A DNA stretch of 64,000 bases from Clostridia bacterium (GTDB lineage: Bacteria; Bacillota; Clostridia; Saccharofermentanales; UBA5734). The stretch's first letter is position 1; each line of letters begins with the position of its first letter. The position numbers and the translations under genes were made by a program. The DNA is taken from contig JAXGXR010000002.1 in NCBI GenBank assembly GCA_040772725.1, positions 559,217-623,216 of the forward strand, written 5' to 3'. Positions 292 to 16,366 of this stretch are shown piece after piece. The notes under the pieces were generated by a model. That model was given only the letters and a program-made list of their open reading frames with translations, searched no databases and had not been told where the DNA came from.

Positions 292-366
292 GGAGAGAAC
301 TAATAGGAATTGAATCGCTTGAAAACAAATCCTTTCAGAGGATGAATTATTTTTTTAGGAGAGAAC
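292..366 (+). promoter_or_regulatory. Candidate integrase arm-type sites (2 x GGAGAGAAC) in the left arm
   Basis: GGAGAGAAC occurs at 292..300 and 358..366. The same 9-mer recurs in the right-end units at 14359, 14372 and, degenerate, at 14550 and 14563. Confidence 0.4.
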
Positions 367-444
367 AAGACACCAATTTAAGCCATTTCTCGAAAAAATG
401 GGCTTCACCTGCCGTTGACAGACAGAAAAGGAAGGGTGAAATCC

Positions 445-1020
445 ATGAAGAAAAAAAGCAAATATCAACTTCTCTATAAGCTGTATCCGCCTGTTATAAC
501 CAAGGATCAATTTTACAGAATCTGTAACATCAGCAAGAAAACTGCTGCCCATTTGCTGGACAACGGTCTGGTCCCCTGTGTGAACAGCGGCAAGAAAACA
601 AGGAAATACAAAATCAATTTGGAGGACGTCATCGAGTATTTGGAATCAAGAGAAAAAGATCCCGGACGATATGCTGCCCCATCCGGATGGTACAAGACCT
701 ATGGTAAACCTGATGAGAAGGATTTCTTGATGACACCTGCGAATATCCGAAAAATCAGTGCTCATTATCTAAAGAAGCTATCCAAGTATCCAGATGTTCT
801 TAGTGTCAATCAGTTGTCCAGCCTTACTGGGTATTCAACCACTACCCTACTTAAATGGATCAATAAGGGCGCAATTAAACACTTGGATATGGGAAATCGC
901 TATTTAGTACCAAAGGAATGGCTGCTCGACTTTCTGTCTGGTCCAGAATTCATGAAGGCACGCATTCCTTCTAAATATGGAGAAGAACAGATCAAGAAAA
1001 TTTTTAAAAGCAAGGAATAG
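445..1020 (+). CDS. Tandem helix-turn-helix (excisionase/MerR-like) DNA-binding protein
   Basis: RBS aaggaagggtg precedes ATG 445. Two HTH-like segments are present (ITKDQFYRICNISKKTAAHLLDNGLVP and LSVNQLSSLTGYSTTTLLKWINKGAIK). It is the first gene inside the left att junction. A hairpin plus T-run follows at about 1105..1135. Confidence 0.6.
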   Translation: MKKKSKYQLLYKLYPPVITKDQFYRICNISKKTAAHLLDNGLVPCVNSGKKTRKYKINLEDVIEYLESREKDPGRYAAPSGWYKTYGKPDEKDFLMTPANIRKISAHYLKKLSKYPDVLSVNQLSSLTGYSTTTLLKWINKGAIKHLDMGNRYLVPKEWLLDFLSGPEFMKARIPSKYGEEQIKKIFKSKE

Positions 1021-1183
1021 GAATACTCAAAGTGGTATATGCGAGAGGATGTCGGCATCAGAGCACTAAATAACGTCTACAATAACTGAGAAAAATCTCG
1101 ACATTAAACCGTCATATTCATGTTGTGACGGTTTATTCTTGAAGATTACTGCCCATACGCCGAAGAAAAAGTGTAAAACCTTC

Positions 1184-1238
1184 TTGACAGTGTGCGATTC
1201 TAGAATTATTATTAGTGTAAAGATATCTTTACACTAAT
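1184..1238 (+). promoter_or_regulatory. Promoter (TTGACA-N17-TATTAT) plus a 28-bp perfect palindromic operator
   Basis: ttgaca at 1184..1189, a 17-nt spacer, then tattat. ATTAGTGTAAAGAT|ATCTTTACACTAAT (1211..1238) is a perfect 14+14 palindrome that abuts the RBS of the XRE gene. Confidence 0.6.
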
Positions 1239-1244
1239 AGGAGC

Positions 1245-1466
1245 GTGTTGACTTTGCCAGTTCGAAACAGAATACAAGAAATACGGCTCGAACGAAAAAT
1301 TAGCCAAGTCAAGATGGCTGAGGATCTTAATGTGACCCGACAGACAATAAATGCCATTGAAAAAGAGCGTTATAATCCCAGTCTTGAGTTAACCCTAAAA
1401 ATCATCGAGTATTTTCAACTTCCGATTGAAGCAATATTTTATCTTGAGAAAGGTGATGCAGAATGA
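1245..1466 (+). CDS. XRE-family HTH transcriptional regulator
   Basis: The sequence RLERKISQVKMAEDLNVTRQTINAIEKERYNPSLELTLKI is a classic Cro/C1-type HTH. RBS aggag sits at 1239. Confidence 0.85.
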   Translation: MLTLPVRNRIQEIRLERKISQVKMAEDLNVTRQTINAIEKERYNPSLELTLKIIEYFQLPIEAIFYLEKGDAE

Positions 1467-1876
1467 ATAAAAAATATTCCATTTTACTATGGATCATAAT
1501 TTTTTTCGGAATGGCAGCAGGAGCCGTTTTGGCTGTTTACCTCGATGAAGGTTTGAACAAACAAGCTATTATAGTTTTTGCACTTCCTTTGTTGATCGGA
1601 GTCAGCGCCGCTGCCCTGGCTTCTCAGTTTGTTAGCAAATATAAGAGCATTGAGAACAGGAATGGAAAAGCAGCGTCTTATGATGAACGGACCGTATATA
1701 TGATGCAACGATACTCCATGATCATGCTGTACGTTTCTCAATTCATCCTGGCCGGCACAGTGTTAGCTCTTAAGATTATGAAAATTGAGTTTATCCCTGT
1801 AGATATTGCTTTACTAGGACTTTTCGGATTTATTGTGATTAATGGCCTTGGAATTATCATTATAAGGAGCAGATAG
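1463..1876 (+). CDS. Small multi-pass membrane protein paired with the XRE regulator (DUF2178-like)
   Basis: The start overlaps the XRE stop (ATGA). Four hydrophobic segments are present. The family assignment is from memory of the common XRE + membrane-protein pair. Confidence 0.55.
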   Translation: MNKKYSILLWIIIFFGMAAGAVLAVYLDEGLNKQAIIVFALPLLIGVSAAALASQFVSKYKSIENRNGKAASYDERTVYMMQRYSMIMLYVSQFILAGTVLALKIMKIEFIPVDIALLGLFGFIVINGLGIIIIRSR

Positions 1877-2027
1877 AAAAATCAAATCAAATGACCAAAT
1901 AAAGCTGTTTCTGTATTCAGATATAATTCTGGCTTTCAAAAAATCAAAATAACGCTGCCCGTTACTTTCAACGAAACGCCTTCCTCGCGAAGGTGTTTTT
2001 TGTTTCAACAAATATAAGGAGGTCGCT

Positions 2028-2369
2028 ATGAAAGAAACGTTTAATCATCGCTACAAGCAGGTCTGCCATCTGGCTGAAATGCAAGGCGAAGCCTTTGCCG
2101 AGGTAGTAACTGAATCCTTTGATGATCTGGATAGCCTGGGTGAGTTCGTCGATACCCTTTTCTACATGCATTCCATCACGGATGATGAGCAATTCGCTGT
2201 TTTCCTTGGGATGATGTACGAGATCATGGGCAGCCAGATGCCTGAAGAGATCGACTACCAAATTGTCATGGAACAGAGGCCCAGCATTTTTTACAGCTGC
2301 TTCCTGTCCTCATTCCTGACAGGAATTTTGAATCGGATCGGAGGTGATTTTCCTTGCCCTGTAATGTGA
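2028..2369 (+). CDS. Hypothetical protein (ICE-borne)
   Basis: RBS taaggagg precedes the ATG. An acidic 113-aa ORF with no family I recognise. Confidence 0.45.
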   Translation: MKETFNHRYKQVCHLAEMQGEAFAEVVTESFDDLDSLGEFVDTLFYMHSITDDEQFAVFLGMMYEIMGSQMPEEIDYQIVMEQRPSIFYSCFLSSFLTGILNRIGGDFPCPVM

Positions 2370-3175
2370 TCGCTATTGCCAATCAGAAAGGTGGAGTCGG
2401 CAAGACCACCACCTGCACCAATCTGGGCATCGGATTGGCCGCCGAAGGCAAGAAGGTTTTGCTTGTAGATTGTGATCCCCAGGGTAGCCTGACGATCAGC
2501 TTGGGGCATCCTCAGCCGGATCAACTACCGGTAACACTCTCCTCTATCTTAGGAAAAACCATGAATGACACAGCGCTTTCTCCACAGGAAGGCATCCTGC
2601 ATCATTGTGAAGGTGTGGATCTGATGCCCGCCAACATTGAGCTGTCCGGACTTGAGGTCTCGCTGGTCAATATTATGAGCCGGGAAAAGATCCTGAAACA
2701 GTATCATGATGATATTAAATCCAGCTACGAATACATCCTGCTCGACTGTATGCCTTCTCTCGGCATGCTGACGGTCAATACTCTGGCTGCCGCAGACAGT
2801 GTTCTAGTCCCTGTACAGGCTCAGTATCTGTCCGCCAAAGGCCTGGAGCAGCTACTTCAAACCATCAACAAAGTTCGCAAGCAAATCAATCCCAAGCTGA
2901 AGATCGACGGTATTTTGCTGACCATGGTAGATAACAGAACCAATGACGCCAAGGAAATCAGTGCTCTTTTGCGAGAAACCTACGGAACCAAGCTGACGGT
3001 GTTTGACTCGGTCATCCCCCACTCCGTCAGGGCGGCAGAGATTGCTTCCTATGGGAAAAGCATCTTCGCCCATGATCCCAAGGGTAAAGTGGCAGAAGCT
3101 TATAGAAATCTGACGAAGGAGGTGCTGAAGCTTGAAACCCAGCGGCAGAAATCTAAATCTGACCTCCTACGATGA
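2354..3175 (+). CDS. parA: ParA/Soj-family partition ATPase
   Basis: Deviant Walker A IAIANQKGGVGKTTT. Also LLVDCDPQGS. RBS ggagg lies 9 nt before TTG 2354. Confidence 0.9.
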   Translation: MPCNVIAIANQKGGVGKTTTCTNLGIGLAAEGKKVLLVDCDPQGSLTISLGHPQPDQLPVTLSSILGKTMNDTALSPQEGILHHCEGVDLMPANIELSGLEVSLVNIMSREKILKQYHDDIKSSYEYILLDCMPSLGMLTVNTLAAADSVLVPVQAQYLSAKGLEQLLQTINKVRKQINPKLKIDGILLTMVDNRTNDAKEISALLRETYGTKLTVFDSVIPHSVRAAEIASYGKSIFAHDPKGKVAEAYRNLTKEVLKLETQRQKSKSDLLR

Positions 3176-4058
3176 GATCTTTCAGACTGAAGAAACCAAG
3201 ATCGAAACATCCCAGGAGAAGGTCATCGATATTCCTTTGACAGATTTGCATCCGTTCAAAAATCACCCCTTCAAGGTGACAGATGACGAATCAATGCTGG
3301 AAACCGCCGAGAGCATCACCAAACACGGCGTCCTGGTGCCGGTCATTGCCCGTCCCCGTGAAGAAGGTGGATATGAGTTGATCTCCGGACACCGGCGCAA
3401 GCGTGCAAGTGAGCTGGCCGGTAAGGAGACTCTTCCTTGCATCGTCCGCAATCTCGACGATGACGCTGCCACCATCATCATGGTTGACAGCAATATTCAG
3501 CGTGAGAACATCCTGCCTAGTGAACGCGCCTTCGCCTATAAACTCAAACTGGAGGCGATAAAGCACCAAGGACGGAGGAACGATTTAACTTCTGACCAAG
3601 TTGAACACAAGTTAAAAGCTAGGGATGTTGTAGCAAAGGAAGCTGGAGAAAGCTCTGTTCAAGTCCAACGCTTTATCCGCCTGACAGAGCTCGTTCCTGA
3701 GCTGTTAGATATGGTCGATGCCAAGAATATCGCTTTCAATCCTGCTGTTGAGCTTTCCTACCTCATGCCTCATGAACAGGTCCAGCTGATGGAAGCCATG
3801 GACATGGAGCAGGCTACACCTTCCTTGTCTCAGGCTCAGCGCTTGAAGAAGTACAGTCAGGATGGCAAGCTGACCTTTGATGTTATGACCGCCATCATGT
3901 CTGAAGATAAAAAAGGTGAACTGGATAAAGTGACGCTCACCGGTGAGAAGCTCAAAAAGTATTTTCCTAAATCCTACACGCCCCAGCAGATGGAGGAAAC
4001 CATTATCAAACTGCTGGAAGGCTGGTCACGGAAGCGCCAGCAATCACAGGAACGGTAA
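3132..4058 (+). CDS. parB: ParB/Spo0J-family partition protein
   Basis: Motifs LISGHRRKRASELAG and IVRNLDDDAATIIMVDSNIQRE are present. RBS aaggaggtg is upstream. The gene overlaps the parA 3' end. Confidence 0.9.
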   Translation: MKPSGRNLNLTSYDEIFQTEETKIETSQEKVIDIPLTDLHPFKNHPFKVTDDESMLETAESITKHGVLVPVIARPREEGGYELISGHRRKRASELAGKETLPCIVRNLDDDAATIIMVDSNIQRENILPSERAFAYKLKLEAIKHQGRRNDLTSDQVEHKLKARDVVAKEAGESSVQVQRFIRLTELVPELLDMVDAKNIAFNPAVELSYLMPHEQVQLMEAMDMEQATPSLSQAQRLKKYSQDGKLTFDVMTAIMSEDKKGELDKVTLTGEKLKKYFPKSYTPQQMEETIIKLLEGWSRKRQQSQER

Positions 4059-4118
4059 TTCCCCTCCGAGGTGCTTCGATGAGAAGCGCTTTTTTTATTC
4101 AACCGGCCGAAGGGAGGG

Positions 4119-5303
4119 ATGCAAATGGCTGTATTTCGAGTTGAGAAAACGAGGGACTACACCGTTATGGCGAATCATCATCTGAAGAATAAGGATCTGT
4201 CACTGAAGTCCAAGGGGCTTCTATCTCAGATGTTATCACTCCCGGAAGACTGGGATTACACCCTCAAGGGGCTTTCTATGATCAACCGGGAGAGCATCGA
4301 TGCCATTCGGGAAGCGGTCCGTGAACTGGAACGGGCAGGATACATCGTCCGAACCAGAGAGAGAAATGAGTTTGGTCACCTTAAGGGTACGGATTACACG
4401 ATTTATGAAAAGCCTCACATGGCGGTAGACCACTCAGCAATCAGCGAGCCTATATCGGAGAAGCCAGTATTGGAAAGACCTATGTTGGAAAATCCAATCT
4501 TGGAGAATCCAGTGTTGGATAAACCTACGTTGGAAAATCCAACGCAATTAAATACTAAGAAAACAAATAAAGATCCATTAATGACTAAGGGATTAAGTAA
4601 ACATCCATCAATCCCTGATCCATCAAGAGAAGCCAAGATCGAGAAGGATGAGATTGGATTGGACGCTCATTCCATCAAGGAGGCCATCCAGGAGAAAATC
4701 GAATACAAGTTTATTGTTCAGCGTTATGACAAAGATCGTCTTGATGAAATCGTGGACCTGATGGTGGAGACTCTCTGTTCCAAGCGAGAATACATCACCG
4801 TTGCCGGGGATGATTATCCTGCATCATTGGTCAAGGAACGGCTGCAGCGCATCGACAGCACCCACATCGAATATGTCTTTGAATGCCTGGATAAAAACAC
4901 CACCTTCATTCGGAACATCAAGAAATACCTCCTGACGACGTTATTCAATGCACCATCCACCATCGACAGCTATTACACCGCTTCCTGGGGTGTTGATCCA
5001 ACTGAAAATACTGAGATTGCTGCTAAATACAGCAGGAAAGTATTCGATGCTGGCTACAATCCCATCTGTCCAATCCTGATGCTCTCAAACTTCATAGATG
5101 ACGGCATCCCCCAGGAACATAAGGACAGACAGGATATTGAGCTTGATTACCTGAGACGCTCCAATGTCCTGGTAGTATGCGGCTCTCGGATCGACGAAGC
5201 CGTGAAAAACGACATTGCCATTGCTGAGCGCTATCGAATTCCGGCAACTACTTTAAGCGGCATCCTGACCGTTAAAAGCCACGGTCAGAAGGCAACAAAA
5301 TAG
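4119..5303 (+). CDS. ICE replication-initiator-like protein (N-terminal wHTH, DUF6017-like middle) with an extra C-terminal domain
   Basis: The N-terminus FRVEKTRDYTVMANHHLKNKDLSLKSKGLLSQMLSLPEDWDY is typical of clostridial ICE Rep proteins. A peptide repeat PVLERPMLENPILENPVLDKPTLENPTQLNT follows. About 105 aa continue after DSYYTA. Confidence 0.7.
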   Translation: MQMAVFRVEKTRDYTVMANHHLKNKDLSLKSKGLLSQMLSLPEDWDYTLKGLSMINRESIDAIREAVRELERAGYIVRTRERNEFGHLKGTDYTIYEKPHMAVDHSAISEPISEKPVLERPMLENPILENPVLDKPTLENPTQLNTKKTNKDPLMTKGLSKHPSIPDPSREAKIEKDEIGLDAHSIKEAIQEKIEYKFIVQRYDKDRLDEIVDLMVETLCSKREYITVAGDDYPASLVKERLQRIDSTHIEYVFECLDKNTTFIRNIKKYLLTTLFNAPSTIDSYYTASWGVDPTENTEIAAKYSRKVFDAGYNPICPILMLSNFIDDGIPQEHKDRQDIELDYLRRSNVLVVCGSRIDEAVKNDIAIAERYRIPATTLSGILTVKSHGQKATK

Positions 5304-5457
5304 CTATGCGTATAGTCATTGTGACATCTCCGGCTCACCTGTGAAGAGCCTAATTGTAAGAATTTTAACCTATACCTTAATGGGTGTAATATAATACTTA
5401 TAAGTACGGAAGAATATGTTGCTATGAGAAAAATAATTTAGAAAGGAGAACTGAATA

Positions 5458-6084
5458 ATGAAAAAGAGAACGAAGCGACTTGTTGGTGTTATAGGATTTC
5501 TTCTCCTTACGGCACTTGCCTTCGTGTTCTATTTCTATATGACTTTTTCAGGTAACATCATTGAGCGATTCAGCCAGCAAAGAGCAATCATTAAGGCATA
5601 TGAAACAAGATATGATGAAGATTTTGAGATTGTAAGTTCAAGCTATGGTTATAAACGCAAGGAATTTTCATTCAGGATATCTTCAAAGAGTGAGCCTGAA
5701 ATAGTGTTCACTTCGACTCTGGATGAAGCGGACAGTATCGATCGATATGCGGCTGCCCGCAGTATAGATTATTTTCGTAAAGTCATATCTGAAGCATTTG
5801 GTAATGACTTTGATGATCTGCAATACAAAGTCAACATCTTTGAGGAGTACAATTCACCGGGTCTTCTCGAGCGTGACGTGACCACTCGCCTAAGCCAGAA
5901 CCAATATGTTGTTGATTTATCATGGGATCCGCCTGTCCTTGATACTTTGCAGGTTGATACCATTTTTAATGATATGACGCAACGGATCTCGGCGCGTCTG
6001 GATACATCCATTGGCGGGCTTAAGATCCGCGCTGGAGTGTATGACGGAAAAGATTACTATATCACTGAGGTTGATCTGAGGTAA
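5458..6084 (+). CDS. Hypothetical membrane-anchored or secreted protein (AT-rich cargo)
   Basis: RBS aaaggagaa is upstream. The N-terminal TM segment is LVGVIGFLLLTALAFVFYFYMTF. No recognisable family. Two hairpin/T-run terminators lie downstream (about 6124..6155 and 6203..6228). Confidence 0.5.
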   Translation: MKKRTKRLVGVIGFLLLTALAFVFYFYMTFSGNIIERFSQQRAIIKAYETRYDEDFEIVSSSYGYKRKEFSFRISSKSEPEIVFTSTLDEADSIDRYAAARSIDYFRKVISEAFGNDFDDLQYKVNIFEEYNSPGLLERDVTTRLSQNQYVVDLSWDPPVLDTLQVDTIFNDMTQRISARLDTSIGGLKIRAGVYDGKDYYITEVDLR

Positions 6085-6363
6085 TAATTAATGAGTAGGA
6101 CGGAAGGGCGAATGCATCTTAATGAACTGCCGTAACGAGGCCGGCAGTTCTTTTTTATCCTGACATAGTGAACACAGCTATAAAAAACATGATTGATATT
6201 CCAAACCACCTGAAAAGGTGGTTTTTTTAAATTAAATGGCATCCGGACCGTTAAAAACCACGGACAGTAGACCTCTAAATAGCATAATTCCTGATTATGC
6301 ACAAAACATTGGAAAAAAGGAATGTTTCGTGCAATTTCAAAAACAGAAAAGGAGAAGAAATCT

Positions 6364-6768
6364 ATGGACGTATTGATTGTTGAACCTGAAAAAGCGCCGC
6401 GTATGGCTAGTATCACCGGTGACCTGAACTCCCTGCAGCAGGTTGTCGGTGGCTACATCGAAGCCGTCTATCCCTATGATGACCCGGTTGCCATTGTCTG
6501 TCATGAAGAGGGCAAACTCATTGGCCCCCCCCTTAACCGAAAACTTGAGGACTACGACATTATCGCAGGAACCTTCATCGTCTGTGGGCTTGGCGAAGAG
6601 GATTTTGATTCCCTCACACCAGAACTGGCCGAGAAGTACCGCGAGAAATTTGCTGATCCTGAGATCTTCATGAAGATGGGCAGCAGAATCGTCGCCATCC
6701 CCATCAAACCCAAAGACGATCTGTATGTGGCCAAACCGAAACAGAAGTCCACGGAACCTGAACTTTAG
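6364..6768 (+). CDS. DUF3846 domain protein (common ICE/plasmid accessory gene)
   Basis: MDVLIVEPEKAPRMASITGDLNSLQQVVGGYIEAVYPYDDPVAIVCHEEGKL matches my memory of DUF3846 N-termini. Confidence 0.65.
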   Translation: MDVLIVEPEKAPRMASITGDLNSLQQVVGGYIEAVYPYDDPVAIVCHEEGKLIGPPLNRKLEDYDIIAGTFIVCGLGEEDFDSLTPELAEKYREKFADPEIFMKMGSRIVAIPIKPKDDLYVAKPKQKSTEPEL

Positions 6769-6886
6769 TTGCTTCAAAAATGAAGAAGCCTTCTCAAACG
6801 AAATAAATTTGAGGAGGCATTCTTTCATTAACAAGAATACTTAAACCATCCGCCTGATAAGTATTTTTGTAAAACTGACTTTCAAA

Positions 6887-7717
6887 TTAGAGACTTTTAA
6901 TCAATTCCCTGATAGCATCCAGGACATCTTCGTAAGTGATTCCATCCGCATACCTGTAATCCTTTGTGTACTTTAACCACCTGGATCTCAAGGCTTCACT
7001 ATCGCTGATTTCTTCCAGGCGTTTGCTTATGCTATTAAAAATGTGAGTCGTTTCCCTGTGTGTGGCCGTGGATCTCAAGGCTTCAACAAAAACGGAATAA
7101 TCAAAACTTTGGGTTTTCGTCAGGATATATACATCGTAAAAATCTCTGGGTCTTGTGTTCAACTCGCCTCGCCTCAAAATGGTTTCCACTTTTTCTGCTA
7201 AGACGGTCTCAATGTTATAAGCCCAAACACCAAAACTGCCTTCTTCAAAAATCATCTTGAACTCATATAGGATTTCCTTAGGAGTGATTGCATCCCCTGT
7301 AGTGATATCAATCTGCATGGGAGTCGTGATCGTATCGTATTCAGAAGTAATACTCACTCGATAGCCACCATAAGCATCATCGTCTCTAATGGCTTCGATT
7401 CCAGAAAACGAGAAAGACACGTCATCATCGATGACGATACTGCAGATATCATTAATAGCTTTGGTCAACGATTCAACATTGATGGGATAATTCTTGATCG
7501 TGGCATCCATGTCCATTGTTGCTCGGTTATCAATGCCGACAAGCGCTGCAATCAGCATTCCGCCTTTTAGGATGAATTTATCCTTGTACTTAGATTTAGA
7601 AAGCCTTTCTATGAACCGTTCAAACATGTAGTTTTGGAGTACGACCTGAGCGGACATATCCTTCTTCCTGGCCAAATTCCGAATTTTTGCCTTCAAGCTC
7701 ATGGCTTTTCCACTCAT
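6887..7717 (-). CDS. abiEii: AbiEii/AbiGii-family nucleotidyltransferase toxin (type IV TA / abortive infection)
   Basis: Contains QNYMFERFIERLSKSKYKDKFILKGGMLI...DMDATI (NTase fold motif). Overlaps the upstream antitoxin gene by 4 nt. Confidence 0.85.
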   Translation of the reverse strand: MSGKAMSLKAKIRNLARKKDMSAQVVLQNYMFERFIERLSKSKYKDKFILKGGMLIAALVGIDNRATMDMDATIKNYPINVESLTKAINDICSIVIDDDVSFSFSGIEAIRDDDAYGGYRVSITSEYDTITTPMQIDITTGDAITPKEILYEFKMIFEEGSFGVWAYNIETVLAEKVETILRRGELNTRPRDFYDVYILTKTQSFDYSVFVEALRSTATHRETTHIFNSISKRLEEISDSEALRSRWLKYTKDYRYADGITYEDVLDAIRELIKSL

Positions 7718-8316
7718 AGCAACACCTCCAGGTAATTTTTGAGTACAGCATCAATTCTGAGCTTTTTGGCATAATCCATGAGCATCGAGAGATCCGCTGA
7801 CTTCAATTTTACAAATCGTTTTAAGGCTTCATTCAGGATTTGGACGTCAATGCGATTTCTGCTTCTAATCAGGTCGCAGATTGTCCTTTCGATGTTGTAG
7901 GTCTTAATTGGATTGCCGTGCGAGCTTTGGACAGTTTCGACGCCAAGCTCATGAAGCTCCTTTTTGATGTAGTAGATTTTGAATCGTTCGGCCATTGACC
8001 CAACCACTTTATAACCGCTTGGTACAGAAGCTGAATACTCAAAGGGTGTCCGATCCGAAAGACCATGCAAATACAGAGCTGTTTCATGAGAATAGATCAG
8101 TTTCGGATACTTCGTTTGCATGGAATACATCTCATCTTCAATGGCATCGGTGGAAACATAAATACCACGATCAACTCTTTCCAGTTTCCCATCGGCTACC
8201 ATCATCTGAAGATAAGTTCTGGGAATTTCATATAAATCCAGATCGGCACTTAATACTGTGCCGTGTTGCTTCTGAATGAGTTTTTCAAGCTTTTCCAGGT
8301 AATTCATCATCATCAC
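7714..8316 (-). CDS. abiEi: AbiEi-family antitoxin / transcriptional autoregulator
   Basis: The N-terminal wHTH is HGTVLSADLDLYEIPRTYLQMMVADGKLERVDRGIYV. The gene is paired with abiEii. The true start is probably MNYLEKL (8304). Confidence 0.8.
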   Translation of the reverse strand: MMMMNYLEKLEKLIQKQHGTVLSADLDLYEIPRTYLQMMVADGKLERVDRGIYVSTDAIEDEMYSMQTKYPKLIYSHETALYLHGLSDRTPFEYSASVPSGYKVVGSMAERFKIYYIKKELHELGVETVQSSHGNPIKTYNIERTICDLIRSRNRIDVQILNEALKRFVKLKSADLSMLMDYAKKLRIDAVLKNYLEVLL

Positions 8317-8326
8317 CTCGCTTTAC

Positions 8327-8374
8327 AAGTATACTTATATTATAGTCCATTTAAGTATATTTGTAAATATACTT
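8327..8374. promoter_or_regulatory. Candidate AbiEi operator palindromes in the abiE promoter
   Basis: AAGTATACTT (8327..8336) is a perfect palindrome. AAGTATATTT-GT-AAATATACTT (8353..8374) is a 10-2-10 palindrome. Both lie directly upstream of the abiEi start. Confidence 0.5.
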
Positions 8375-8486
8375 TTCAATACAATGCACAACGTTTAAGG
8401 CCAACTTGATTGTTGCTGACCTAAGTTGTAGATAGCACAAACTGAGGTTTATAAAAATTTAGTACCACGTTAAGGAGGAATTTTTC

Positions 8487-8966
8487 ATGCAGGAAGAAGT
8501 GGAAAACAGGACCGTTGCCCTGGCTGTCAGTACCACCCGAATGACCGGTCGTGTTCTGAAGGCCGCACTCATCAAGCTCTTGGCTGAAATGAAGAAGAGC
8601 CGGGACAGTCCGCCACAGATCCCCCACGGCAAGCAGACCGTAAAAGAGCTCATCGGTCAGAATGCCGGAGTCTCCAACATTGAGATTACGGACAAGAACA
8701 TCAAGTCCTTTGAGCAGGTCGCCAGAAAATACGGCGTAGACTATGCCCTCAAGAAGGATACCGCCGGGGAGAAGCCTAAATATCTGGTCTTCTTCAAGGC
8801 CCGGGACGCCGATGCCCTCACCGCAGCCTTCACAGAATATACGGCGAAGGTCCTCAAAAAGGACAAGCAGCCTTCCATCCTGGAACAGCTTGCCAAATTT
8901 AAGGCTCTGGTTCAGACCAAGGTCATGGACCGGGTGAAAAACAAAGACAAGGAGCTGACGCGATGA
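8487..8966 (+). CDS. PcfB-family (DUF3801) conjugation protein
   Basis: Contains VALAVSTTRMTGRVLKAAL...KYGVDYALKKD...YLVFFKARDADALTAAF. RBS aaggagg is upstream. Confidence 0.75.
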   Translation: MQEEVENRTVALAVSTTRMTGRVLKAALIKLLAEMKKSRDSPPQIPHGKQTVKELIGQNAGVSNIEITDKNIKSFEQVARKYGVDYALKKDTAGEKPKYLVFFKARDADALTAAFTEYTAKVLKKDKQPSILEQLAKFKALVQTKVMDRVKNKDKELTR

Positions 8967-10738
8967 TAGGAAAAATCAAGCGGATGCTCCTTTTAAACCT
9001 TCCCTATGTTCTCATAGCGCTAGGTACGACCAAGATTGGTGAAGCCTGGCGCTTTTCTGTTGGAGTAGATATTTCTCAGAAGGTACTGCACCTGATGGAC
9101 GGCTTTGCTTTATCTTTCCAATCCCCATGGCCGAGCCTGCTCCCGCAGGACCTGATACTGGGCATTGTGATTGCTGGTGGAATTAAGCTGGCAGTCTATG
9201 TGAAAGGCAGGAACGCCAAAAGATACCGCAAAAACATCGAATACGGCTCAGCCCGCTGGGGCAGACCTGAGGACATCAAGCCCTTTATTGATCCCACCTT
9301 TCGCAATAACATCATCCTTACGGAGACGGAGCGCCTGACCATGAACAACCGCCCTAGGGACCCAAGGCTCGCACGCAACAAAAACGTCATGGTGGTGGGA
9401 GGTTCCGGATCTGGTAAGACGCGGTTTTGGCTGAAGCCAAATCTTATGCAGTGCCATTCCAGCTATGTGGTCACCGATCCCAAGGGCAGCGTCGTGGTGG
9501 AATGCGGACAGCTTCTCGTTCGGGAAGGCTATAAGATCAAGATCCTCAATACCATCAACTTCAGCAAATCCATGCACTACAACCCCTTTGCCTACATCAG
9601 GAGTGAAAAGGACATCCTCAAGCTGGTGACGGCCCTCATCGCCAACACCAAGGGTGAAGGCAAAGCTGGAGACGATTTCTGGGTGAAGGCGGAGACTCTG
9701 CTATATACCGCGCTCATGGGCTACATCCATTATGAAGCACCGGAAAGCGAGCGGAACTTCACGACCCTCATCGAGCTCATCAATGCCTCAGAAGTCCGGG
9801 AGGACGACGAGGACTTTCAGAACCCGGTGGATCTGATGTTCGCCGCTCTGGAGGAACATGACTCGGAGCATTTTGCAGTCCGGCAGTACAAGAAATACAA
9901 GCTGGCAGCCGGAAAGACCGCCAAATCCATCCTCATCAGCTGCGGGGCCCGTCTGGCATCCTTTGATATCAAAGAGCTCAGAGATCTGACGGCCTATGAC
10001 GAAATGGAACTGGATGCCCTAGGTGACCGGAAAACGGCGCTGTTCATCATCATCAGCGACACTGATGACACCTTCAACTTCCTGGTTTCCATGGCGTACA
10101 CGCAGCTCTTCAATCTGCTGTGCGACAAGGCAGATGACGTCTATGGCGGACGTCTGCCTGTGCATGTGCGCTGTCTCATTGATGAGGCGGCGAATATCGG
10201 TCAAATTCCCAAACTGGAAAAGCTCGTGGCCACCATCCGAAGCCGGGAGATCTCGGCCTGTCTGGTACTGCAGGCCCAATCCCAGCTGAAGGCTCTTTAT
10301 AAAGATCACTGCGATACCATCATCGGCAATATGGACAGCACGATCTTTCTGGGCGGCAAGGAGCGCACCACATTAAAGGAGCTTTCAGAAACCCTTGGGA
10401 AGGAGACCATCGACACCTTCAATACCGGGGAAAGCCGAGGCCGTGAAGTTTCCCACAGTCTGAACTACCAGAAACTCGGAAAGGAGCTGATGAGCATCGA
10501 CGAACTGGCCGTGCTGGACGGCGGCAAGTGCATTCTGCAGCTGCGCGGGGTACGGCCTTTTCTCTCCAACAAGTACGACATCACCAAACACCCCAACTAC
10601 AAGTACCTCTCCGATGCGGACCCGCGAAACGCCTTCAACATCGAGAAGTACCTGTCCACCCGTCTCAAGCCCAAACCGGATGAAATCTATGAGGTCTACC
10701 ACATGGATCTGTCCAACCAACCCGAAGCCGCCGAATGA
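8963..10738 (+). CDS. Type IV coupling protein (VirD4/TraG family, CD1115-type)
   Basis: Has N-terminal TM segments. Walker A is VVGGSGSGKTRF. Walker B-like is HVRCLIDEAANIG. A terminator hairpin plus T-run lies at about 10725..10750. Confidence 0.9.
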   Translation: MIGKIKRMLLLNLPYVLIALGTTKIGEAWRFSVGVDISQKVLHLMDGFALSFQSPWPSLLPQDLILGIVIAGGIKLAVYVKGRNAKRYRKNIEYGSARWGRPEDIKPFIDPTFRNNIILTETERLTMNNRPRDPRLARNKNVMVVGGSGSGKTRFWLKPNLMQCHSSYVVTDPKGSVVVECGQLLVREGYKIKILNTINFSKSMHYNPFAYIRSEKDILKLVTALIANTKGEGKAGDDFWVKAETLLYTALMGYIHYEAPESERNFTTLIELINASEVREDDEDFQNPVDLMFAALEEHDSEHFAVRQYKKYKLAAGKTAKSILISCGARLASFDIKELRDLTAYDEMELDALGDRKTALFIIISDTDDTFNFLVSMAYTQLFNLLCDKADDVYGGRLPVHVRCLIDEAANIGQIPKLEKLVATIRSREISACLVLQAQSQLKALYKDHCDTIIGNMDSTIFLGGKERTTLKELSETLGKETIDTFNTGESRGREVSHSLNYQKLGKELMSIDELAVLDGGKCILQLRGVRPFLSNKYDITKHPNYKYLSDADPRNAFNIEKYLSTRLKPKPDEIYEVYHMDLSNQPEAAE

Positions 10739-10784
10739 GCGGCTTTTTTCATCTCAAAAATCAAAAATAATTGGAGGTAATTTA

Positions 10785-11000
10785 ATGGAATTCTTTAACA
10801 GTGCAGTAGATGTACTACAGACTCTCGTCGTCGCTCTCGGTGCGGGCCTTGCCATCTGGGGCGTCATCAACCTTCTCGAAGGCTACGGTAACGATAACCC
10901 CGGTGCCAAGTCCCAGGGCATGAAGCAGCTTATGGCAGGCGGCGGTGTGGCCCTTATCGGTATCGTGCTGGTGCCGCTGCTCTCCGGTCTCTTCGGTTAA
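10785..11000 (+). CDS. Maff2-family small membrane protein
   Basis: MEFFNSAVDVLQTLVVALGAGLAIWGVINLLEGYGNDNPGAKSQGMKQLMAGGG. RBS ggagg lies 8 nt upstream. Confidence 0.75.
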   Translation: MEFFNSAVDVLQTLVVALGAGLAIWGVINLLEGYGNDNPGAKSQGMKQLMAGGGVALIGIVLVPLLSGLFG

Positions 11001-11014
11001 TCGGGTAGAACGCG

Positions 11015-11403
11015 ATGGATAGCATACTCGACAAAATCACCGAATGGCTGAAGACGATGCTTGTAGAAGGCATCATCACAAATTTGTCGGGGATGTTTGA
11101 TAACGTCAATCAGCAGGTTGGCGAAATCGCAGGTGAAGTGGGACTGACGCCGGCGGCATGGAATGCCGGCGTCTTTTCCATGATCCGCAGCCTCTCCGAA
11201 AGTGTCATCATCCCCATCGCGGGTGTGATCCTTGCCTTTGTGATGACCTACGAGCTCATCCAAATGGTCATCGACCGGAATAATCTTCATGACATCGACA
11301 CCTGGATCTTCTTCAAATGGATCTTTAAAACCTTTGTGGCCGTTCTTCTGGTCACCCATACCTTTGATATCGTCATGGGCATCTTCGATATGGCGCAGTC
11401 GGT
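11015..11403 (+). pseudogene. VirB6/TrbL-like conjugal transfer protein (CD1112-type), 3'-truncated by IS21
   Basis: The N-terminal ~130 aa (MDSILDKITEWLKTMLVEGI...TFVAVLLVTHTFDIVMGIFDMAQSVV) run straight into the IS21 left end. The ORF tail SAKLEIPEAIK is IS-encoded. Confidence 0.75.
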
Positions 11404-11594
11404 TGTGTCTGCTAAACTAGAAATACCAGAAGCGATCAAGTAAAAATCCCAGAATCGATCACTTGGAATTCCCTGGAAAAATCAAGGACTAAAAGGAGGG
11501 ACAGTTGAACAACTGTCCCCTGAATCATTATCCTTTGTTGTGAGCGCGACCACACAGCAGAGGAGGAATAGGAGAGATGCTCAACGTGTCTTAA

Positions 11595-13043
11595 GTGAAT
11601 CATATCAGGGATTTGGCCCAAAGTGGGAAATGTCCGGCACAAATCAGCCGCGAAACCGGACGGGATATCAAGACCGTCAACAAGTACCTGGAGGACAGGG
11701 ACTATTCGCCAAGGCCACTGAAGGTTATAAGGAAGCCGTCAAAGCTCGACCCCTACAAGGAGACGATTGACAAATGGCTGGAGTCGGACCAGACACGTTG
11801 GCACAAGCAGCGCCATACGGCCAAGCGCGTCTACGACCGGCTCAGGGAACGCCATCCCGAATTCGACTGCTCCTACCCGACCGTGGGGCGCTACGTGCGC
11901 GAGAAGAACGATGCCCTGAAAGCGGGCAAGGCGTTCCAGGAACTGGTCTGGCATCCCGGCGAGGCGCAGGTCGACTTTGGCGAGGCGGACTTTGTCGAGC
12001 GCCAGGCGATGGTGCGGAAGAAGTATCTGACGGTGTCGTTTCCCTACAGCAATGACAGCTTCACGCAGGTGTTCGGCGGCGAGACGGCCGAGTGCGTCTG
12101 CCAGGGACTGAAGGATATTTTTGCCTACATCGGCGGCGTACCGGGGATTTTGGTATTCGACAACGCCACCGGCGTCGGGCGACGGGTTGGGGAAATAATC
12201 CGCGAGGCGAAACTGTTCGGGCAGTTTCGGGCCCACTACGGATTTCTGCTCCGGTTCTGCAACCCGAACGCCGGCCACGAGAAGGGCAATGTGGAAAACA
12301 AGGTCGGCTTCACGCGCCGGAACCTGTTCGTGCCGCCGCTTGCCTATGACGACATCGAAGTTTTCAACCAACAACTTCTGGATCGGCATCAGGATAAGTC
12401 GGAGGAACCGCACTACAAGAAGCTCTTGCCGATCAAGGAGTTGTTCAAGGAAGACCGGCAGGCGTTAAGGCCGCTGCCGTCGCACCCGTTCAACGTCTGC
12501 CGCTACGAGACCGTCCATGCCGACAACTACGGCAAGGTCTGCCTCGACGAGCGCCACCGCTATGCCACCTGCCCCGAGTATGGCGGCAAAAAGGTCATGG
12601 TGGGGCTTCGGGCGCACACGGTCGAGATCCTAGCGGACGACCTGTCGGTCCTGACGGTCTATGACCGGATGTTCGGCGCCGAACGCACCGACACGACCGA
12701 CTACCGCACGACGCTGGCGACACTTCTCAAAAATGTCGGCGCCTGGAGAAACAGCGGCATCCGGGAAAAACTGCCGGACCCATTGCGCCAGGCGTTGGAT
12801 GCGCAGCCGAAAGAAGCGTTGCGCCAGTCGCTTCGGGCGCTCGAGCAGCTGAGCCAAACCTACGATTTTGAGACGGCGGTCGCTGCGCTCGAAGAGGGCT
12901 TGCGCCTGGACCGCACGCGGCTGTCGGACACGGCGGTGCTGGCGGCCCGGATTCGCGGCTACGGCCTGATGCGGGCGCCGGAGAAGGGCCCGGACCTTAG
13001 AGTCTATGACCGGTTGTTGAAGGGAGACGGAGCATGCTCATGA
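11595..13043 (+). CDS. istA: IS21-family transposase IstA
   Basis: The N-terminal HTH is IRDLAQSGKCPAQISRETGRDIKTVNKYL. The DDE core region includes WHPGEAQVDFGEA...LVFDNATG...GHEKGNVENKV. Confidence 0.9.
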   Translation: MNHIRDLAQSGKCPAQISRETGRDIKTVNKYLEDRDYSPRPLKVIRKPSKLDPYKETIDKWLESDQTRWHKQRHTAKRVYDRLRERHPEFDCSYPTVGRYVREKNDALKAGKAFQELVWHPGEAQVDFGEADFVERQAMVRKKYLTVSFPYSNDSFTQVFGGETAECVCQGLKDIFAYIGGVPGILVFDNATGVGRRVGEIIREAKLFGQFRAHYGFLLRFCNPNAGHEKGNVENKVGFTRRNLFVPPLAYDDIEVFNQQLLDRHQDKSEEPHYKKLLPIKELFKEDRQALRPLPSHPFNVCRYETVHADNYGKVCLDERHRYATCPEYGGKKVMVGLRAHTVEILADDLSVLTVYDRMFGAERTDTTDYRTTLATLLKNVGAWRNSGIREKLPDPLRQALDAQPKEALRQSLRALEQLSQTYDFETAVAALEEGLRLDRTRLSDTAVLAARIRGYGLMRAPEKGPDLRVYDRLLKGDGACS

Positions 13044-13843
13044 CGCAAAGGACACGTGACGATGCCCGGGGCGCCATCGCCGCCTGCTGCAAGACGCTTT
13101 ACCTCTCGAAGAACGTCCTGCGCCTGTGCGAGGACGAGGCCACCCCCAAGCAGGAGGAGTTTTTGCTCAGGGTCCTCGAGCAGGAGCTTCAGCAACGCGA
13201 AAAGAATCGGATCGCCAGGCTCCTGAACCGCGCTGGCTTTCCGACGCTCAAGGGTTTTTCCGACTACGACTTCACCAACGTGCGCTTCCCGCCGACGCTT
13301 TCCAGGGACGAGCTTTTGACGGCTGGGTTTATTTCGGAGCAGAAGAACCTGGTGCTTTACGGCCCGGTCGGCACTGGAAAAACCCACCTGGCGATCGCCC
13401 TGGGCTTGAAAGCATGCGAGATGGGGCTCCGGGTCCGCTTCTATTCGGTCACAGCCCTGGTCCTGAAGCTGGGCGAGGCCTTTAAGGACGGCACGCTGGA
13501 AAAACTCGTGCGCGACCTTCTGAACCTGGACCTGCTGATCCTCGATGAATGGGGCTATGTCCCGGTCGACAAGGAAGGCTCGCAGCTTCTGTTCCGCGTC
13601 GTCGCCGACAGCTACGAGCAGAAGAGCCTCATCCTGACCACCAACCTCGAGTTCTCCAAATGGGGTTCGATCTTTACTGATGAGCAGATGGCCGCTGCCA
13701 TGATTGACCGCCTGGTGCACCATGGCCATCTCCTGATCTTCGACGGCGAAAGCTACCGCATGAAGCATGCGCTGATGCGACAGACGCAACGGCCGCCTGC
13801 CGACAAGGGGGTGAGAATGGCTGCCTCAATGGCCGATGATTAA
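13034..13843 (+). CDS. istB: IS21-family helper ATPase IstB
   Basis: Walker A is LVLYGPVGTGKTHLAIALG. Walker B is LLILDEWGY. The gene overlaps the istA stop. Confidence 0.9.
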   Translation: MLMTQRTRDDARGAIAACCKTLYLSKNVLRLCEDEATPKQEEFLLRVLEQELQQREKNRIARLLNRAGFPTLKGFSDYDFTNVRFPPTLSRDELLTAGFISEQKNLVLYGPVGTGKTHLAIALGLKACEMGLRVRFYSVTALVLKLGEAFKDGTLEKLVRDLLNLDLLILDEWGYVPVDKEGSQLLFRVVADSYEQKSLILTTNLEFSKWGSIFTDEQMAAAMIDRLVHHGHLLIFDGESYRMKHALMRQTQRPPADKGVRMAASMADD

Positions 13844-13920
13844 AACAGGGAATTCCCAGTGATTACGAATGGGATTTTTTGTTGATCATTTATGGGAAAA
13901 GCTGTTGACAAAACACACAC

Positions 13921-14139
13921 GATCTTCGACATAGCTGCGCTAGCTTACTACTGGCAAACAACGTTCCGATGAAACAGATCCAGGACTGGTTAGGCCATAG
14001 TGATTTTTCAACGACGGCCAATATCTACGCTCACTTGGATTACAATTCAAAGCTTTCGTCGGCTCAAGCTATGATTGAAGGATTAAATTTTGTCAGTATC
14101 GGAGAAAGCAGATCGAATAATGAGTCATGTACGGATTAG
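13921..14139 (+). pseudogene. Tyrosine recombinase/integrase, C-terminal 72 codons only (5' part removed at the IS21 end)
   Basis: The frame starting at 13921 reads DLRHSCASLLLANNVPMKQIQDWLGHSDFSTTANIYAHLDY. This covers the box II R-H...H..Y catalytic region. It begins exactly at the IS21 right end and its stop is at 14137..14139. Confidence 0.8.
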
Positions 14140-14174
14140 AATAGTAAAAAAACAAGTCTTTCCTGCACACAAGC

Positions 14175-14219
14175 AGAAAAAAGCGGTTCCCCTCAAACTG
14201 AGGAAAACCGCGGGTTTTC
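14175..14219. terminator. Bidirectional hairpin terminator (integrase stub / element tRNA-Ser)
   Basis: Stem GCGGTT..CCTC / GAGG..AACCGC (14183..14211). It is flanked by an A-run on the left and a T-run on the right. Confidence 0.6.
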
Positions 14220-14313
14220 TGGCGGAGAAGGAGGGATTTGAACCCTCGCGACGGCTCTAAACCGTCCTACTGCATTTCGAGTGCAGACCCTTCAGCCACT
14301 TGGGTACTTCTCC
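14220..14313 (-). tRNA. tRNA-Ser (anticodon CGA), complete, element-borne
   Basis: rc = GGAGAAGTACCCAAGTGGCTGAAGGGTCTGCA CTCGAAA TGCAG..variable arm..GAGGGTTCAAATCCCTC CTTCTCC GCCA. The acceptor stem GGAGAAG/CTTCTCC pairs. The anticodon stem CTGCA/TGCAG pairs. The loop CU-CGA-AA gives anticodon CGA. Length is 94 nt. Confidence 0.9.
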
Positions 14314-14358
14314 GTGTTATATCTCCAAACATCAGGTCTCATATATCCCTCAGAAAAA

Positions 14359-14571
14359 GGAGAGAACTGATGGAGAGAACTTGGGGTATTAAGTTGTCAA
14401 GGCGACTCAGCAAAGCGAGTCATATCAATGGTTTGAAGTTTTAGGCTTCCAGATATCTCATTCGGTTTCGAGTGCAGACCCTTCAGCCACTTGGGTACTT
14501 CTCCGTGTAATATTTCCAAACATCAGGTCTCAGAAACTCTTCGGAAAAAGTAGAGAACTGATGTAGAGAAC
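14359..14571 (+). promoter_or_regulatory. Candidate integrase arm-type sites in the right-end units
   Basis: GGAGAGAAC at 14359 and 14372. GTAGAGAAC at 14550 and 14563. Each pair is spaced 13 bp and has the same orientation as the left-arm copies. Confidence 0.4.
14473..14504 (-). pseudogene. Orphan 5' half of an element-type tRNA-Ser(CGA)
   Basis: Identical to the 5' 32 nt of the intact tRNA at 14220..14313. After the TTTCGAG core it is followed by non-tRNA arm sequence. Confidence 0.8.
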
Positions 14572-14663
14572 GTAGGGTATTCAGTTTTCAAGGCGACTCG
14601 GCAAAGCAAGTCAGATCAGTAGATCGGTGTTCACGGCTTCCCAAACTCTTGTTCGCTTTCGAG

Positions 14664-14695
14664 TGCGGTGCCTTCGGCCACTCAGCCATCTCTCC
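14664..14695 (-). pseudogene. 5' half of the split host tRNA-Ser(CGA)
   Basis: rc = GGAGAGATGGCTGAGTGGCCGAAGGCACCGCA. Its acceptor and anticodon-stem strands complement the 3' segment at 37..94. Confidence 0.85.
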
Positions 14696-14750: not shown

Positions 14751-14779
14751 ATTATAAAATAGGCGGTTGGCCACGTCAA
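14751..14779 (-). promoter_or_regulatory. Consensus sigma-70-type promoter of the (now split) host tRNA-Ser
   Basis: The minus strand reads TTGACG-N17-TATAAT (rc of 14774..14779 and 14751..14756). The -10 element lies ~55 nt upstream of the tRNA 5' end at 14695. Confidence 0.7.
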
Positions 14780-15085: not shown

Positions 15086-16366
15086 TTATAGGAGATCTCG
15101 TCGGGACTGCTTTTGGGCCCGCAACCGGCTAATCCCGGTAAGTGGCCTGAAACGACTGAGGCAGTAGTCGAGGAAAACCGCACTCTGGCGGATGCCATGA
15201 GGGTCGAGCGGCAGCAGGACACGGCCGGCTCCGCTTGATGTTCGGATTGCGTCCATGGGCAGTCGATGTGGGCGCCTGGGGTCGGCCAGGCTGATTTCCG
15301 GGTGGCTGTCACCGGGATCGCGATGTTCGCGCGGGTTGTCCGGGTTTTCGTCATGGTCGCGGTACATGGCCGAGTCTGCCCAGCGGTGGCAGTGGGTGAC
15401 TGAAAAGCCTGGAAAGTGCATGTCGATGGTTTCCGGCGACACTTCAGTCACGGAGGAAAGGTACCGGCGGTAGCCAAGAAAGAAGCGCGCCATGTTTGGA
15501 TCGGCTTTGAAATGGGAGCCGATCGTGGCTTCGCGGATCCAGGCGGCATAGCGGACCATGTCTTTTGGTCGGACGTGATCCCAGGCGGGCAGATTGTCAG
15601 CTGGCTCGCCCAGATGCTCATAGATGACCTGGCAGTATTGGTCGAAGATTTGCGGGGCCAATCGCTCCAGTTTGAAAAAGCGGTTCAGGATCGCAGCCTG
15701 GTTTTCCGAGCCGCAGCGCAAGAGAACCTGTTCAAACAGAAGCACGCTGTCCTGATAGACTGTTTCATCACCGATCCGGAACAAATAGGTGCAAAGCCGC
15801 TCGCCGAAGGGCAGCAGAGGATCGACACGGTACCTGATCAGAAACTCGTGGAGTGAAAATTGCTTGTCCAGGACTTTGCGCGCGCACCGGCTGACCACGG
15901 AACGTGTGTTGACTCGCAGGAAATCGTTGATGGTGAGGTCGTGGGCGACCTCCCTGACCCGGATGATTCCGCTCAGGACATCGAGGGCATGGGTGACCAG
16001 CGGGTGGGGGAACGTGCGCTGGAAAACGAGGTAGCCGACCTGCAGCAGTGAGTCGCAGGCCCGTTCCCGGATAATGAGCAGCAGACGATCCGTCAGTTCA
16101 CTTCTGGCCGTTTGGGCACCGAGGGCAGGGAAAACGAGCATGAGCTGACGTGATGGCATGGCACGGGCGAATTGAAGCAGTCGGGCCGTATCGGGCATTT
16201 GCAGGATTGTTGAAGCCAATGTCTGCAGATCGTCCGCCCGGATCTTTCCCACCCATTCATCCGGGTAAGGGAAGTGCTGACGGACAGACTGCAGGGTTTC
16301 CTGGAAACGGCTGCCCGTCACGCTTGCGCCTTGGGCGCTATTCGCATTGGCAACCGACGGCCCCAT
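15086..16366 (-). CDS. Hypothetical soluble protein, possibly EH-signature (ZorC-like) domain
   Basis: A 426-aa ORF with host-like composition, translationally coupled to the upstream gene (TAA-GG-ATG). Contains the motifs IYEHLGEP, ADPNMARFFLGYRRYL and MHFPGFSVTHCHRWADSAMY. The family call is from memory and was not computed. Confidence 0.45.
   Translation of the reverse strand: MGPSVANANSAQGASVTGSRFQETLQSVRQHFPYPDEWVGKIRADDLQTLASTILQMPDTARLLQFARAMPSRQLMLVFPALGAQTARSELTDRLLLIIRERACDSLLQVGYLVFQRTFPHPLVTHALDVLSGIIRVREVAHDLTINDFLRVNTRSVVSRCARKVLDKQFSLHEFLIRYRVDPLLPFGERLCTYLFRIGDETVYQDSVLLFEQVLLRCGSENQAAILNRFFKLERLAPQIFDQYCQVIYEHLGEPADNLPAWDHVRPKDMVRYAAWIREATIGSHFKADPNMARFFLGYRRYLSSVTEVSPETIDMHFPGFSVTHCHRWADSAMYRDHDENPDNPREHRDPGDSHPEISLADPRRPHRLPMDAIRTSSGAGRVLLPLDPHGIRQSAVFLDYCLSRFRPLTGISRLRAQKQSRRDLL

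Follow-up and report, generated by a model that had tools for sequence, protein, structure and literature searches.

How does the anticodon-loop sequence of one tRNA gene come to be repeated, at an exact period, beside the remains of a mobile element? The question is raised by a 64,000-nucleotide stretch of a Clostridia bacterium genome (contig JAXGXR010000002.1; the whole of this stretch is called the window below), in which the plus strand carries the heptamer TTTCGAG at positions 88, 14275, 14466 and 14657, the last three exactly 191 bp apart. Since the heptamer itself is not enriched (12 occurrences in the window against 11.1 expected), the signal lies in the 191-bp repeat and its tRNA context rather than in the count of 7-mers. 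Here, we describe a sequence analysis of this locus and its relatives. We read the window as holding the decayed remains of integrative conjugative elements (ICEs) of a family that is common in the Oscillospiraceae and other Clostridia. We consider it probable that a host tRNA gene was split here by an ICE that supplied a replacement tRNA, and that serial entries of two such elements, ICE-1 and ICE-2, left the 191-bp units. A split host gene, a complete element tRNA, two units and arms originating from two lineages are apparent in the sequence itself.

Tandem Repeats Finder delimits the array at 14275-14682 (period 191 bp, matches 82-88%, indels 0, scores 557-569), and each unit is made up of the 7-bp core, a 32-nt tRNA 5' half and a 152-nt arm. 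The preliminary description of this DNA had arrived at the same four core positions, the same period and the same composition of the unit, and a plus-strand search bears it out. When the two units are aligned pairwise, 158/191 positions are identical, with 39/39 in the core and 5' half and 119/152 in the arms, which had been described, correctly, as homologous but diverged. At the third core (14657) the adjoining 5' half differs (29/39, core included) and the DNA beyond is unrelated (41/152). The 5' halves at 14282 and 14473 are thus the same and that at 14664 is of the host type, in agreement with the earlier reading.

ARAGORN and Rfam recognize a single complete tRNA-Ser(CGA), at 14220-14313 on the minus strand, with stems that pair internally. 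In this gene the anticodon loop (14275-14281) reproduces the attB core in full, and the 5' half is also present in three relatives from other hosts (L010, L105 and L117); we refer to this element gene as tRNA(E). Fusion in silico of positions 1-94 to the sequence from 14664 onward yields a perfectly paired tRNA-Ser(CGA), which identifies 38-94 and 14657-14695, both on the minus strand, as the halves of one split host gene. The former is an orphan 3' half that includes the attL copy of the core (88-94); the latter consists of the attR core (14657-14663) and an orphan host 5' half (14664-14695), which recurs with one mismatch in L010, a locus from a related host. Between tRNA(E) and attR lie, in order, arm 1 (14314-14465, plus strand), assigned as the P arm of ICE-2; a core (14466-14472) with an orphan 5' half of the element type (14473-14504), the two on the minus strand and 39/39 identical to tRNA(E); and arm 2 (14505-14656, plus strand), assigned as the P arm of ICE-1. 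We infer that 14466-14504 is the remainder of the ICE-1 tRNA after the entry of ICE-2. In comparisons of attL and attR with the host gene, element-side identity ends at the 7-bp TTTCGAG: the DNA after attL is non-tRNA sequence, and the DNA before attR is arm. Neither element junction forms a tRNA, as a junction of a classical tRNA-regenerating island would. The anticodon-loop sublocation and the 7-nt crossover segment correspond to Williams' class of anticodon-loop sites. Two features may bear on transcription across the array. A G+C-rich hairpin with a T run (14183-14211, minus strand), just past the 3' end of tRNA(E), is a putative terminator of the minus-strand tRNA and, judged by eye only, may in the opposite direction end int transcription. 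Upstream of the host tRNA gene, a strong promoter-like site (14751-14779, minus strand; TTGACG-17 nt-TATAAT) matches the consensus at 11/12 positions and is now directed through both units to tRNA(E).

The element enclosed by these junctions is incomplete. Positions 95-14656 are lower in G+C content than the host flank. In the left part of the ICE remnant (95-11403, plus strand), annotated from its open reading frames and Pfam matches, the values are 37-53%, compared with about 60% for the flanking host DNA. This part encodes an HTH_17 protein (445-1020), ParA (2354-3175), ParB (3132-4058), a DUF6017 protein (4119-5303), an AbiEii toxin/AbiEi antitoxin pair as ICE cargo (6887-8316, minus strand), a VirD4-type coupling protein (8963-10738) and a TrbL/VirB6-like gene (11015-11403) that is cut at about residue 130 and matches positions 1-103 of the 174 of the TrbL_2 profile. 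A small open reading frame between the last two genes is Maff2-like, a name assigned by eye from its sequence. Within the DUF6017 gene, a 45-bp tandem repeat of 1.9 copies (4457-4542) encodes a repeated PxLENP-type peptide. The left-end gene order is repeated in the relative L066; no identical record of the VirD4 protein was found.

An IS21-family element (11404-13917, plus strand; IstB_IS21 E=4.9e-67; istA 11595-13043, istB 13034-13843) is placed between the truncated TrbL gene and an integrase stub. Its G+C content of 57-62% is host-like inside the lower-G+C ICE, and its ends are imperfect inverted repeats starting TGTGT. No target-site duplication flanks it (TCGGT on the left, CACGA on the right), and the element therefore marks a deletion junction, which may reflect a deletion or an exchange between two IS copies; the window contains no second copy. 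The stub (13918-14141, plus strand) comprises the last 73 codons and the stop of a tyrosine integrase gene, with the motifs HDLRHSCAS...LGH...Y, and is 99% identical to the uninterrupted int of P0001/L089. Relaxase, VirB4 and most of int are absent from the element and were, we conclude, lost at the IS21 junction; for want of them the window copy is a remnant unable to transfer. The L089 contig, just 1 kb long, has int and terminator 99% the same as in the window and diverges exactly at the tRNA 3' end, so it is silent on the arm. Past the point of divergence (950-1030) it runs into an unrelated plus-strand tRNA-like sequence, a join that is either a rearrangement or an assembly chimera. The 120 proteins that best match the integrase C-terminus are short without exception (67-133 aa), and many of them are encoded on long contigs; integrase stubs of this ICE family seem to abound in gut metagenomes. 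An exact-protein look-up of the host flank gene at 15086-16366 returned only a 1.7-kb contig and recovered no empty site.

Is the structure of the right end peculiar to this genome? An alignment of integrase C-termini, scanned against one genome per species, gave 80 loci, picked by integrase similarity and drawn mostly from metagenome-assembled genomes, mostly of Oscillospiraceae and other Clostridia. A complete tRNA-Ser(CGA) with a TTTCGAG loop lies shortly downstream of int in 64 of the 80 (gaps of about 35-430 bp), and in 62 of these 64 an arm of 140-174 nt follows, with another TTTCGAG at +179 to +214. Past the second core, an orphan 5' half is found in 56 of the 62; the number of units per locus is one in 43 and two or more in 13. 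The int frame is at least 380 aa long in 54 of the 64 tRNA-bearing loci, and full-length integrase relatives match Phage_integrase and SAM_3. Apparently intact copies are present in the isolates Oscillibacter sp. MSJ-31 (L028), Lachnoanaerobaculum sp. OBRC5-5 (L034) and Pygmaiobacter massiliensis (L031). The preliminary description had proposed an ending in int, tRNA-Ser(CGA), arm and core for each ICE of the family and had named tandem arrays elsewhere as a point to check; the survey bears out both. The outermost 5' half is non-cognate to the int-side 3' half in 50 of 58 scored loci, and in five genomes (L008, L013, L014, L015 and L039) a single element tRNA 5' half is combined with five different outer halves. 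These family data assign both the complete tRNA and the arm to the element and indicate that the host gene is split, not rebuilt. Two relatives, L021 and L029, lie beside tRNA-Ser(UGA) and have the same order of int, tRNA, arm, core and 5' half with TTTCAAG as the second core; the core therefore follows the anticodon loop of the target. At L021 there are, in addition, extra repeat copies between int and the tRNA.

Some right ends depart from this layout. At six loci (L001, L002, L004, L005, L006 and L009) they are arm-less, int and tRNA being followed directly by host flank. A second, short unit type occurs at L040, L060, L073 (last two cores 78 bp apart) and L017 (89 bp); in it, about 38 nt (conserved ...TATTCAGTTTT...AACATGA) separate a tRNA 5' half from the core, and paired repeats are absent. 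This unit may be either an arm with an internal deletion or a trace left by some other element family. At L049 (Eubacterium sp. OM08-24), L053 and L084, the DNA past arm and core is no tRNA half and matches no recognised left end; integration here may have been at secondary sites.

The origin of the two units in the window can be traced through their arms. In 76 of 80 arms there is a pair of direct repeats of 7-10 nt, 13 bp apart and fixed in position, with lineage-specific variants that include GGAGAGAAC, GGGGAGAAC, GGAGAGACA, GGTAGAAC and GTAGAGAAC. Arm 1 has GGAGAGAAC at 14359-14367 and 14372-14380; arm 2 has the variant GTAGAGAAC at 14550-14558 and 14563-14571, and the occurrence of the same G-to-T change in both of its repeats marks a lineage variant rather than decay. 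Arm 1 is identical at 141/152 positions to the single arm of L010, a locus with a full-length integrase in a related, syntenic host. Arm 2 is identical at 152/152 positions to the arm of L105 and at 151/152 to that of L117. Both loci run from int through a complete tRNA with the same 5' half as tRNA(E) to the arm and then into a different host half and flank; the L117 integrase is a full 397 aa and differs in its C-terminal tail. A metagenome scan for the GTAGAGAAC pair gave 36 matches, of which two were true (L105 and L117) and 34 were unrelated simple repeats. Because each arm matches a different lineage, two distinct ICEs contributed to the array, and because arm 2 is almost identical in two contigs with different host flanks, the arms are element and not host DNA. 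The units are thus no host-encoded repeat, the finding on which the original interpretation would have foundered.

In the left (P') arm, positions 281-366 on the plus strand carry candidate arm-type integrase sites, GAGAGAAT at 281-288 and GGAGAGAAC at 292-300 and 358-366. Within the first 15 kb, GGAGAGAAC is confined to this left end (292, 358) and arm 1 (14359, 14372). As the left end has the repeat of arm 1 and not the GTAGAGAAC of arm 2, it more likely derives from ICE-2 than from ICE-1, and the body may be all ICE-2 rather than a chimera; GGAGAGAAC is the commonest repeat variant in the family, which makes this a weak indication. The proposal that a deletion fused the left part of ICE-1 to the tip of ICE-2 accordingly fares in two ways: a deletion is evident at the IS21 junction, and the chimera is disfavoured, at the same weak strength, by the GGAGAGAAC repeats of the left end. 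Agreement between the two ends is seen in L075, a complete 4.3-kb element with the same repeat variant in arm and left end and an orphan 3' half cognate to its outer 5' half. The exact 22-mer across the attL of the window (TTTCGAGACGTTCATTTCATTC) has no match in metagenome contigs, and so does not tell which arm is partnered with this left end elsewhere. A viral-contig scan for GGAGAGAAC pairs gave three matches, none with the int-tRNA-arm-core architecture. On the viral contig L128 a related integrase lies beside tRNA-Leu(CAA), apparently in a classical layout, with a GGAGAGAAC pair between int and tRNA; L044, L045 and L033 also have a GGAGAGAAC pair in this position, which may be the ancestral layout.

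If one element can enter the tRNA of another, tandem junctions are expected, and five loci have them. At L025 (Lawsonibacter sp. LCP25S3_F5, an isolate genome, on a 506-kb contig), L027, L044 (Merdimmobilis hominis An559), L066 and L080, int and a tRNA 3' half are followed by the core and then by the left end of another element, so that a recombination module abuts the far end of a second element, as in tandem accretion. At L025, L066 and L080 this left end is a homologue of the HTH_17 gene of the window, with a spacing close to that at the attL of the window; L027 and L044 have the same junction with other left ends. These five junctions have the structure predicted for the intermediate in which one element has entered the tRNA of another. 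Together with the two arm lineages, they favour the account first proposed, that ICE-1 entered the host tRNA and ICE-2 the tRNA of ICE-1. L044 and L047 have int ends that are 98% identical and a common downstream left end, and differ by exactly one unit of half, arm and core, absent from L044. L047 and L077 show arm, core and then a left end. They were considered as circular attP forms and rejected, since the repeat variants of arm and left end are mismatched, and they instead resemble accretion at a different att site. The analysis turned up no circular attP junction in which the repeats of arm and left end agree; the two junctions of arm, core and left end that were seen are those of L047 and L077.

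A difference of one unit is seen at one chromosomal locus, consisting of a DUF188 gene, an int stub, tRNA-Ser(CGA) and a PAP2 gene. It has no unit in L001, L002 and L004 and one in L003 (about 6249-6790), and the difference is exactly one 191-bp unit, the sequences coming from different samples. This host retains only the integrase stub and what seems to be the element-supplied tRNA. At another shared host locus, L117 has int, element tRNA, arm, core and host half, and L005 has a split int and a coherent host-type tRNA with no arm; the contrast is consistent with unit loss, or with excision via the inner core.

These observations suggest the following mechanism, in which catalysis, the order of events and the compensation for the host gene by the element tRNA are inferred. 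A tyrosine integrase would exchange strands within TTTCGAG between attP (arm, core and left end) and the anticodon loop of tRNA-Ser(CGA), with the paired repeats of the arm and of the left end serving as arm-type sites. As the attP core is flanked by an arm of about 150 nt and not by tRNA sequence, integration would split the host gene without rebuilding it, and the element tRNA-Ser(CGA), between int and arm, would stand in for it. Since the element tRNA holds an intact copy of the target, it could receive the next element. In the window, ICE-1 (with GTAGAGAAC, of the L105/L117 lineage) would have entered the host tRNA, and ICE-2 (with GGAGAGAAC, of the L010 lineage) would then have entered a tRNA with an ICE-1-derived 5' half, displacing outward the ICE-1 5' half, arm 2 and its core. 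The body of ICE-1 would have been lost, either by deletion between two attL-type sites after tandem formation or at an earlier time, leaving a hybrid tRNA and one unit that ICE-2 later entered; both routes lead to the same end structure and are indistinguishable here, and several orders of events could reach it. Finally, an IS21-linked deletion would have removed the bulk of the transfer genes together with the 5' part of int.

Serial entry has to be weighed against an array assembled elsewhere. ICE-2 might have entered the tRNA of ICE-1 in an earlier host, excised with both units by recombination between its attL and the outer attR, that of ICE-1, and integrated only once here. The cores are all direct repeats, which makes such an excision geometrically possible, and arm-less right ends such as those of L005, L006 and L009 are the leftover to be expected from it. 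The arm on the side of the host half would, however, have to be the working P arm, and that arm has GTAGAGAAC, whereas the int-stub lineage and the left end have GGAGAGAAC; this counts against it only weakly, and we regard a single integration of a pre-assembled array as improbable but worth keeping in mind. A simpler history would need no second element at all, one 191-bp unit having been duplicated locally by unequal crossing-over or by integrase-mediated exchange between the tRNA core and the attR core of sister chromosomes. One locus does exist with and without a unit (L003 against L001, L002 and L004), and arrays with identical or nearly identical arms are known (100% in L061 and L063, 97% in L017 and L065); these may be true duplications or re-entries of the same element. 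The arms within arrays elsewhere are often just 50-63% identical. In the window, 33 of the 152 arm positions differ while the 39 nt of core and half are identical, and at this level of divergence the probability that the 32-nt half would stay unchanged is about 0.0004. Furthermore, each arm is closer to an arm from another genome than to its neighbour, and the two repeats of arm 2 share their G-to-T change. Duplication, possible for the identical-arm arrays, is contradicted for the window, where arm 2 agrees with L105 at 152/152 positions, and we hold it to be very unlikely there.

The classical model, in which the element carries a tRNA 3' half and rebuilds the gene at attR, would make the units pre-existing host sequence. 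The six loci in which int and tRNA are followed by host flank have the form that it expects, but they could also have arisen if a unit was lost between identical repeats of 39 bp. Against this model, the arms are conserved together with int across hosts with different flanks, the outer halves are non-cognate in most of the scored loci, and lineage-specific repeats are common to the arms and the left ends of elements. The family data contradict it, and of the explanations considered we give it the least credence. Splitting of the host gene by an ICE that brings its own tRNA, followed by a second entry, thus remains the account that we prefer.

How does this account relate to known systems? In ICE accretion, a second element integrates at an att site of a resident one to give tandem elements, which decay to short, cis-mobilizable remnants flanked by att cores; the ICESt3/CIME elements of Streptococcus reportedly show both site-specific accretion and such decayed, cis-mobilizable remnants. 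Entry at an att site of the resident element and remnants flanked by att cores are common to accretion and to the family described here. The targets differ, being hybrid attL or attR sites at the junction there and, on our proposal, a complete, separate tRNA gene inside the resident element here. The remnants here are uniform, each measuring about 180-193 bp and combining a tRNA 5' half with an arm and a core.

In the islands mapped by Islander (PMC4383910) and in tycheposons (Hackl et al., 10.1101/2020.12.28.424599), integrations follow one another at a single tRNA gene and partial tRNA copies mark the older events; this is the feature that they share with the present family. In those systems a partial tRNA is carried and the gene is regenerated at the junction, whereas in the present family the two halves of the host gene become orphans and their place is taken by a complete, xenologous tRNA gene.

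The closest parallel is tRNA-dependent lysogeny, described for the actinobacteriophages Fionnbharth, Cluster L and Gaia (Guerrero-Bustamante and Hatfull 2024, PMC10865867), with the Lactobacillus johnsonii prophage Lj965 cited in the same work. There, the short common core does not restore the host tRNA, and experiments showed that a phage-encoded tRNA of matching isotype is needed; in Gaia the phage tRNA lies downstream of int. Both systems have a tyrosine integrase with arm-type sites (candidate sites in our case), attB in a host tRNA gene, a short common core (about 10 bp in the phages, 7 bp here) and a tRNA that is not rebuilt. Four of the five defining features of tRNA-dependent lysogeny are found in the window: an int stub with catalytic motifs, from which catalysis is deduced; a host tRNA split at the anticodon loop; a shared core of 7 bp; and a complete tRNA-Ser(CGA) in the element, as in 64 of 80 relatives. 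That the tRNA is required was shown by experiment in the phages and would be a prediction here. The two systems differ in that the elements there are phages and those here conjugative elements of Clostridia, that the core here is the anticodon loop, that the replacement tRNA immediately adjoins attP and belongs to a fixed int-tRNA-arm-core module, and that this tRNA appears to be a target in its own right, giving rise to scar arrays. PMC10865867 contains no mention of conjugative elements or of a phage tRNA as a target, and the titles and abstracts of papers citing tRNA-dependent lysogeny give no account of ICEs or of phage tRNAs in that role.

The preliminary description had suggested that an element which recreates its own attB, a self-propagating landing pad, had not been spelled out before for tRNA-targeting ICEs. 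The components of this idea are less new than was stated there: ICE accretion was already known, repeated integration at tRNA genes is known to leave partial tRNAs behind, and replacement of the tRNA has been shown for phages (PMC10865867). What stands as new is the combination of tRNA replacement with accretion in a widespread family of Clostridial ICEs, together with the fixed int-tRNA-arm-core module and the uniform scar arrays.

The finding extends target-tRNA replacement, described in 2024 for actinobacteriophages, to a large family of ICEs of gut Clostridia whose architecture recurs in the majority of the 80 species-level genomes surveyed. It also explains the orphan tRNA halves, the repeats of 180-193 bp and the many integrase stubs that lie beside tRNA-Ser(CGA) genes in these genomes. 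Island-mapping tools that expect a regenerated tRNA and one displaced fragment would set the element boundaries wrongly. From the scar arrays, the order in which integrations took place can be read. The element tRNA suggests itself as a predictable integration target that is independent of the host tRNA allele. We put forward, tentatively and as a reading that may well prove wrong, that this tRNA is a portable attB, that the arrays are an ordered record of colonisation and that foreign tRNA-Ser(CGA) alleles may replace those of the host. If this were true, any genome or mobile element holding one member of the family would be a target for all other members, irrespective of the host tRNA sequence. 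Each event would add one unit of half, arm and core, and an array would thus record past colonisations in order. Decay of an element would leave its host dependent on a foreign tRNA, as could be the case in L001-L004, which keep an int stub and the tRNA only, and tRNA-Ser(CGA) alleles would perhaps have been replaced horizontally across gut Clostridia by these ICEs.
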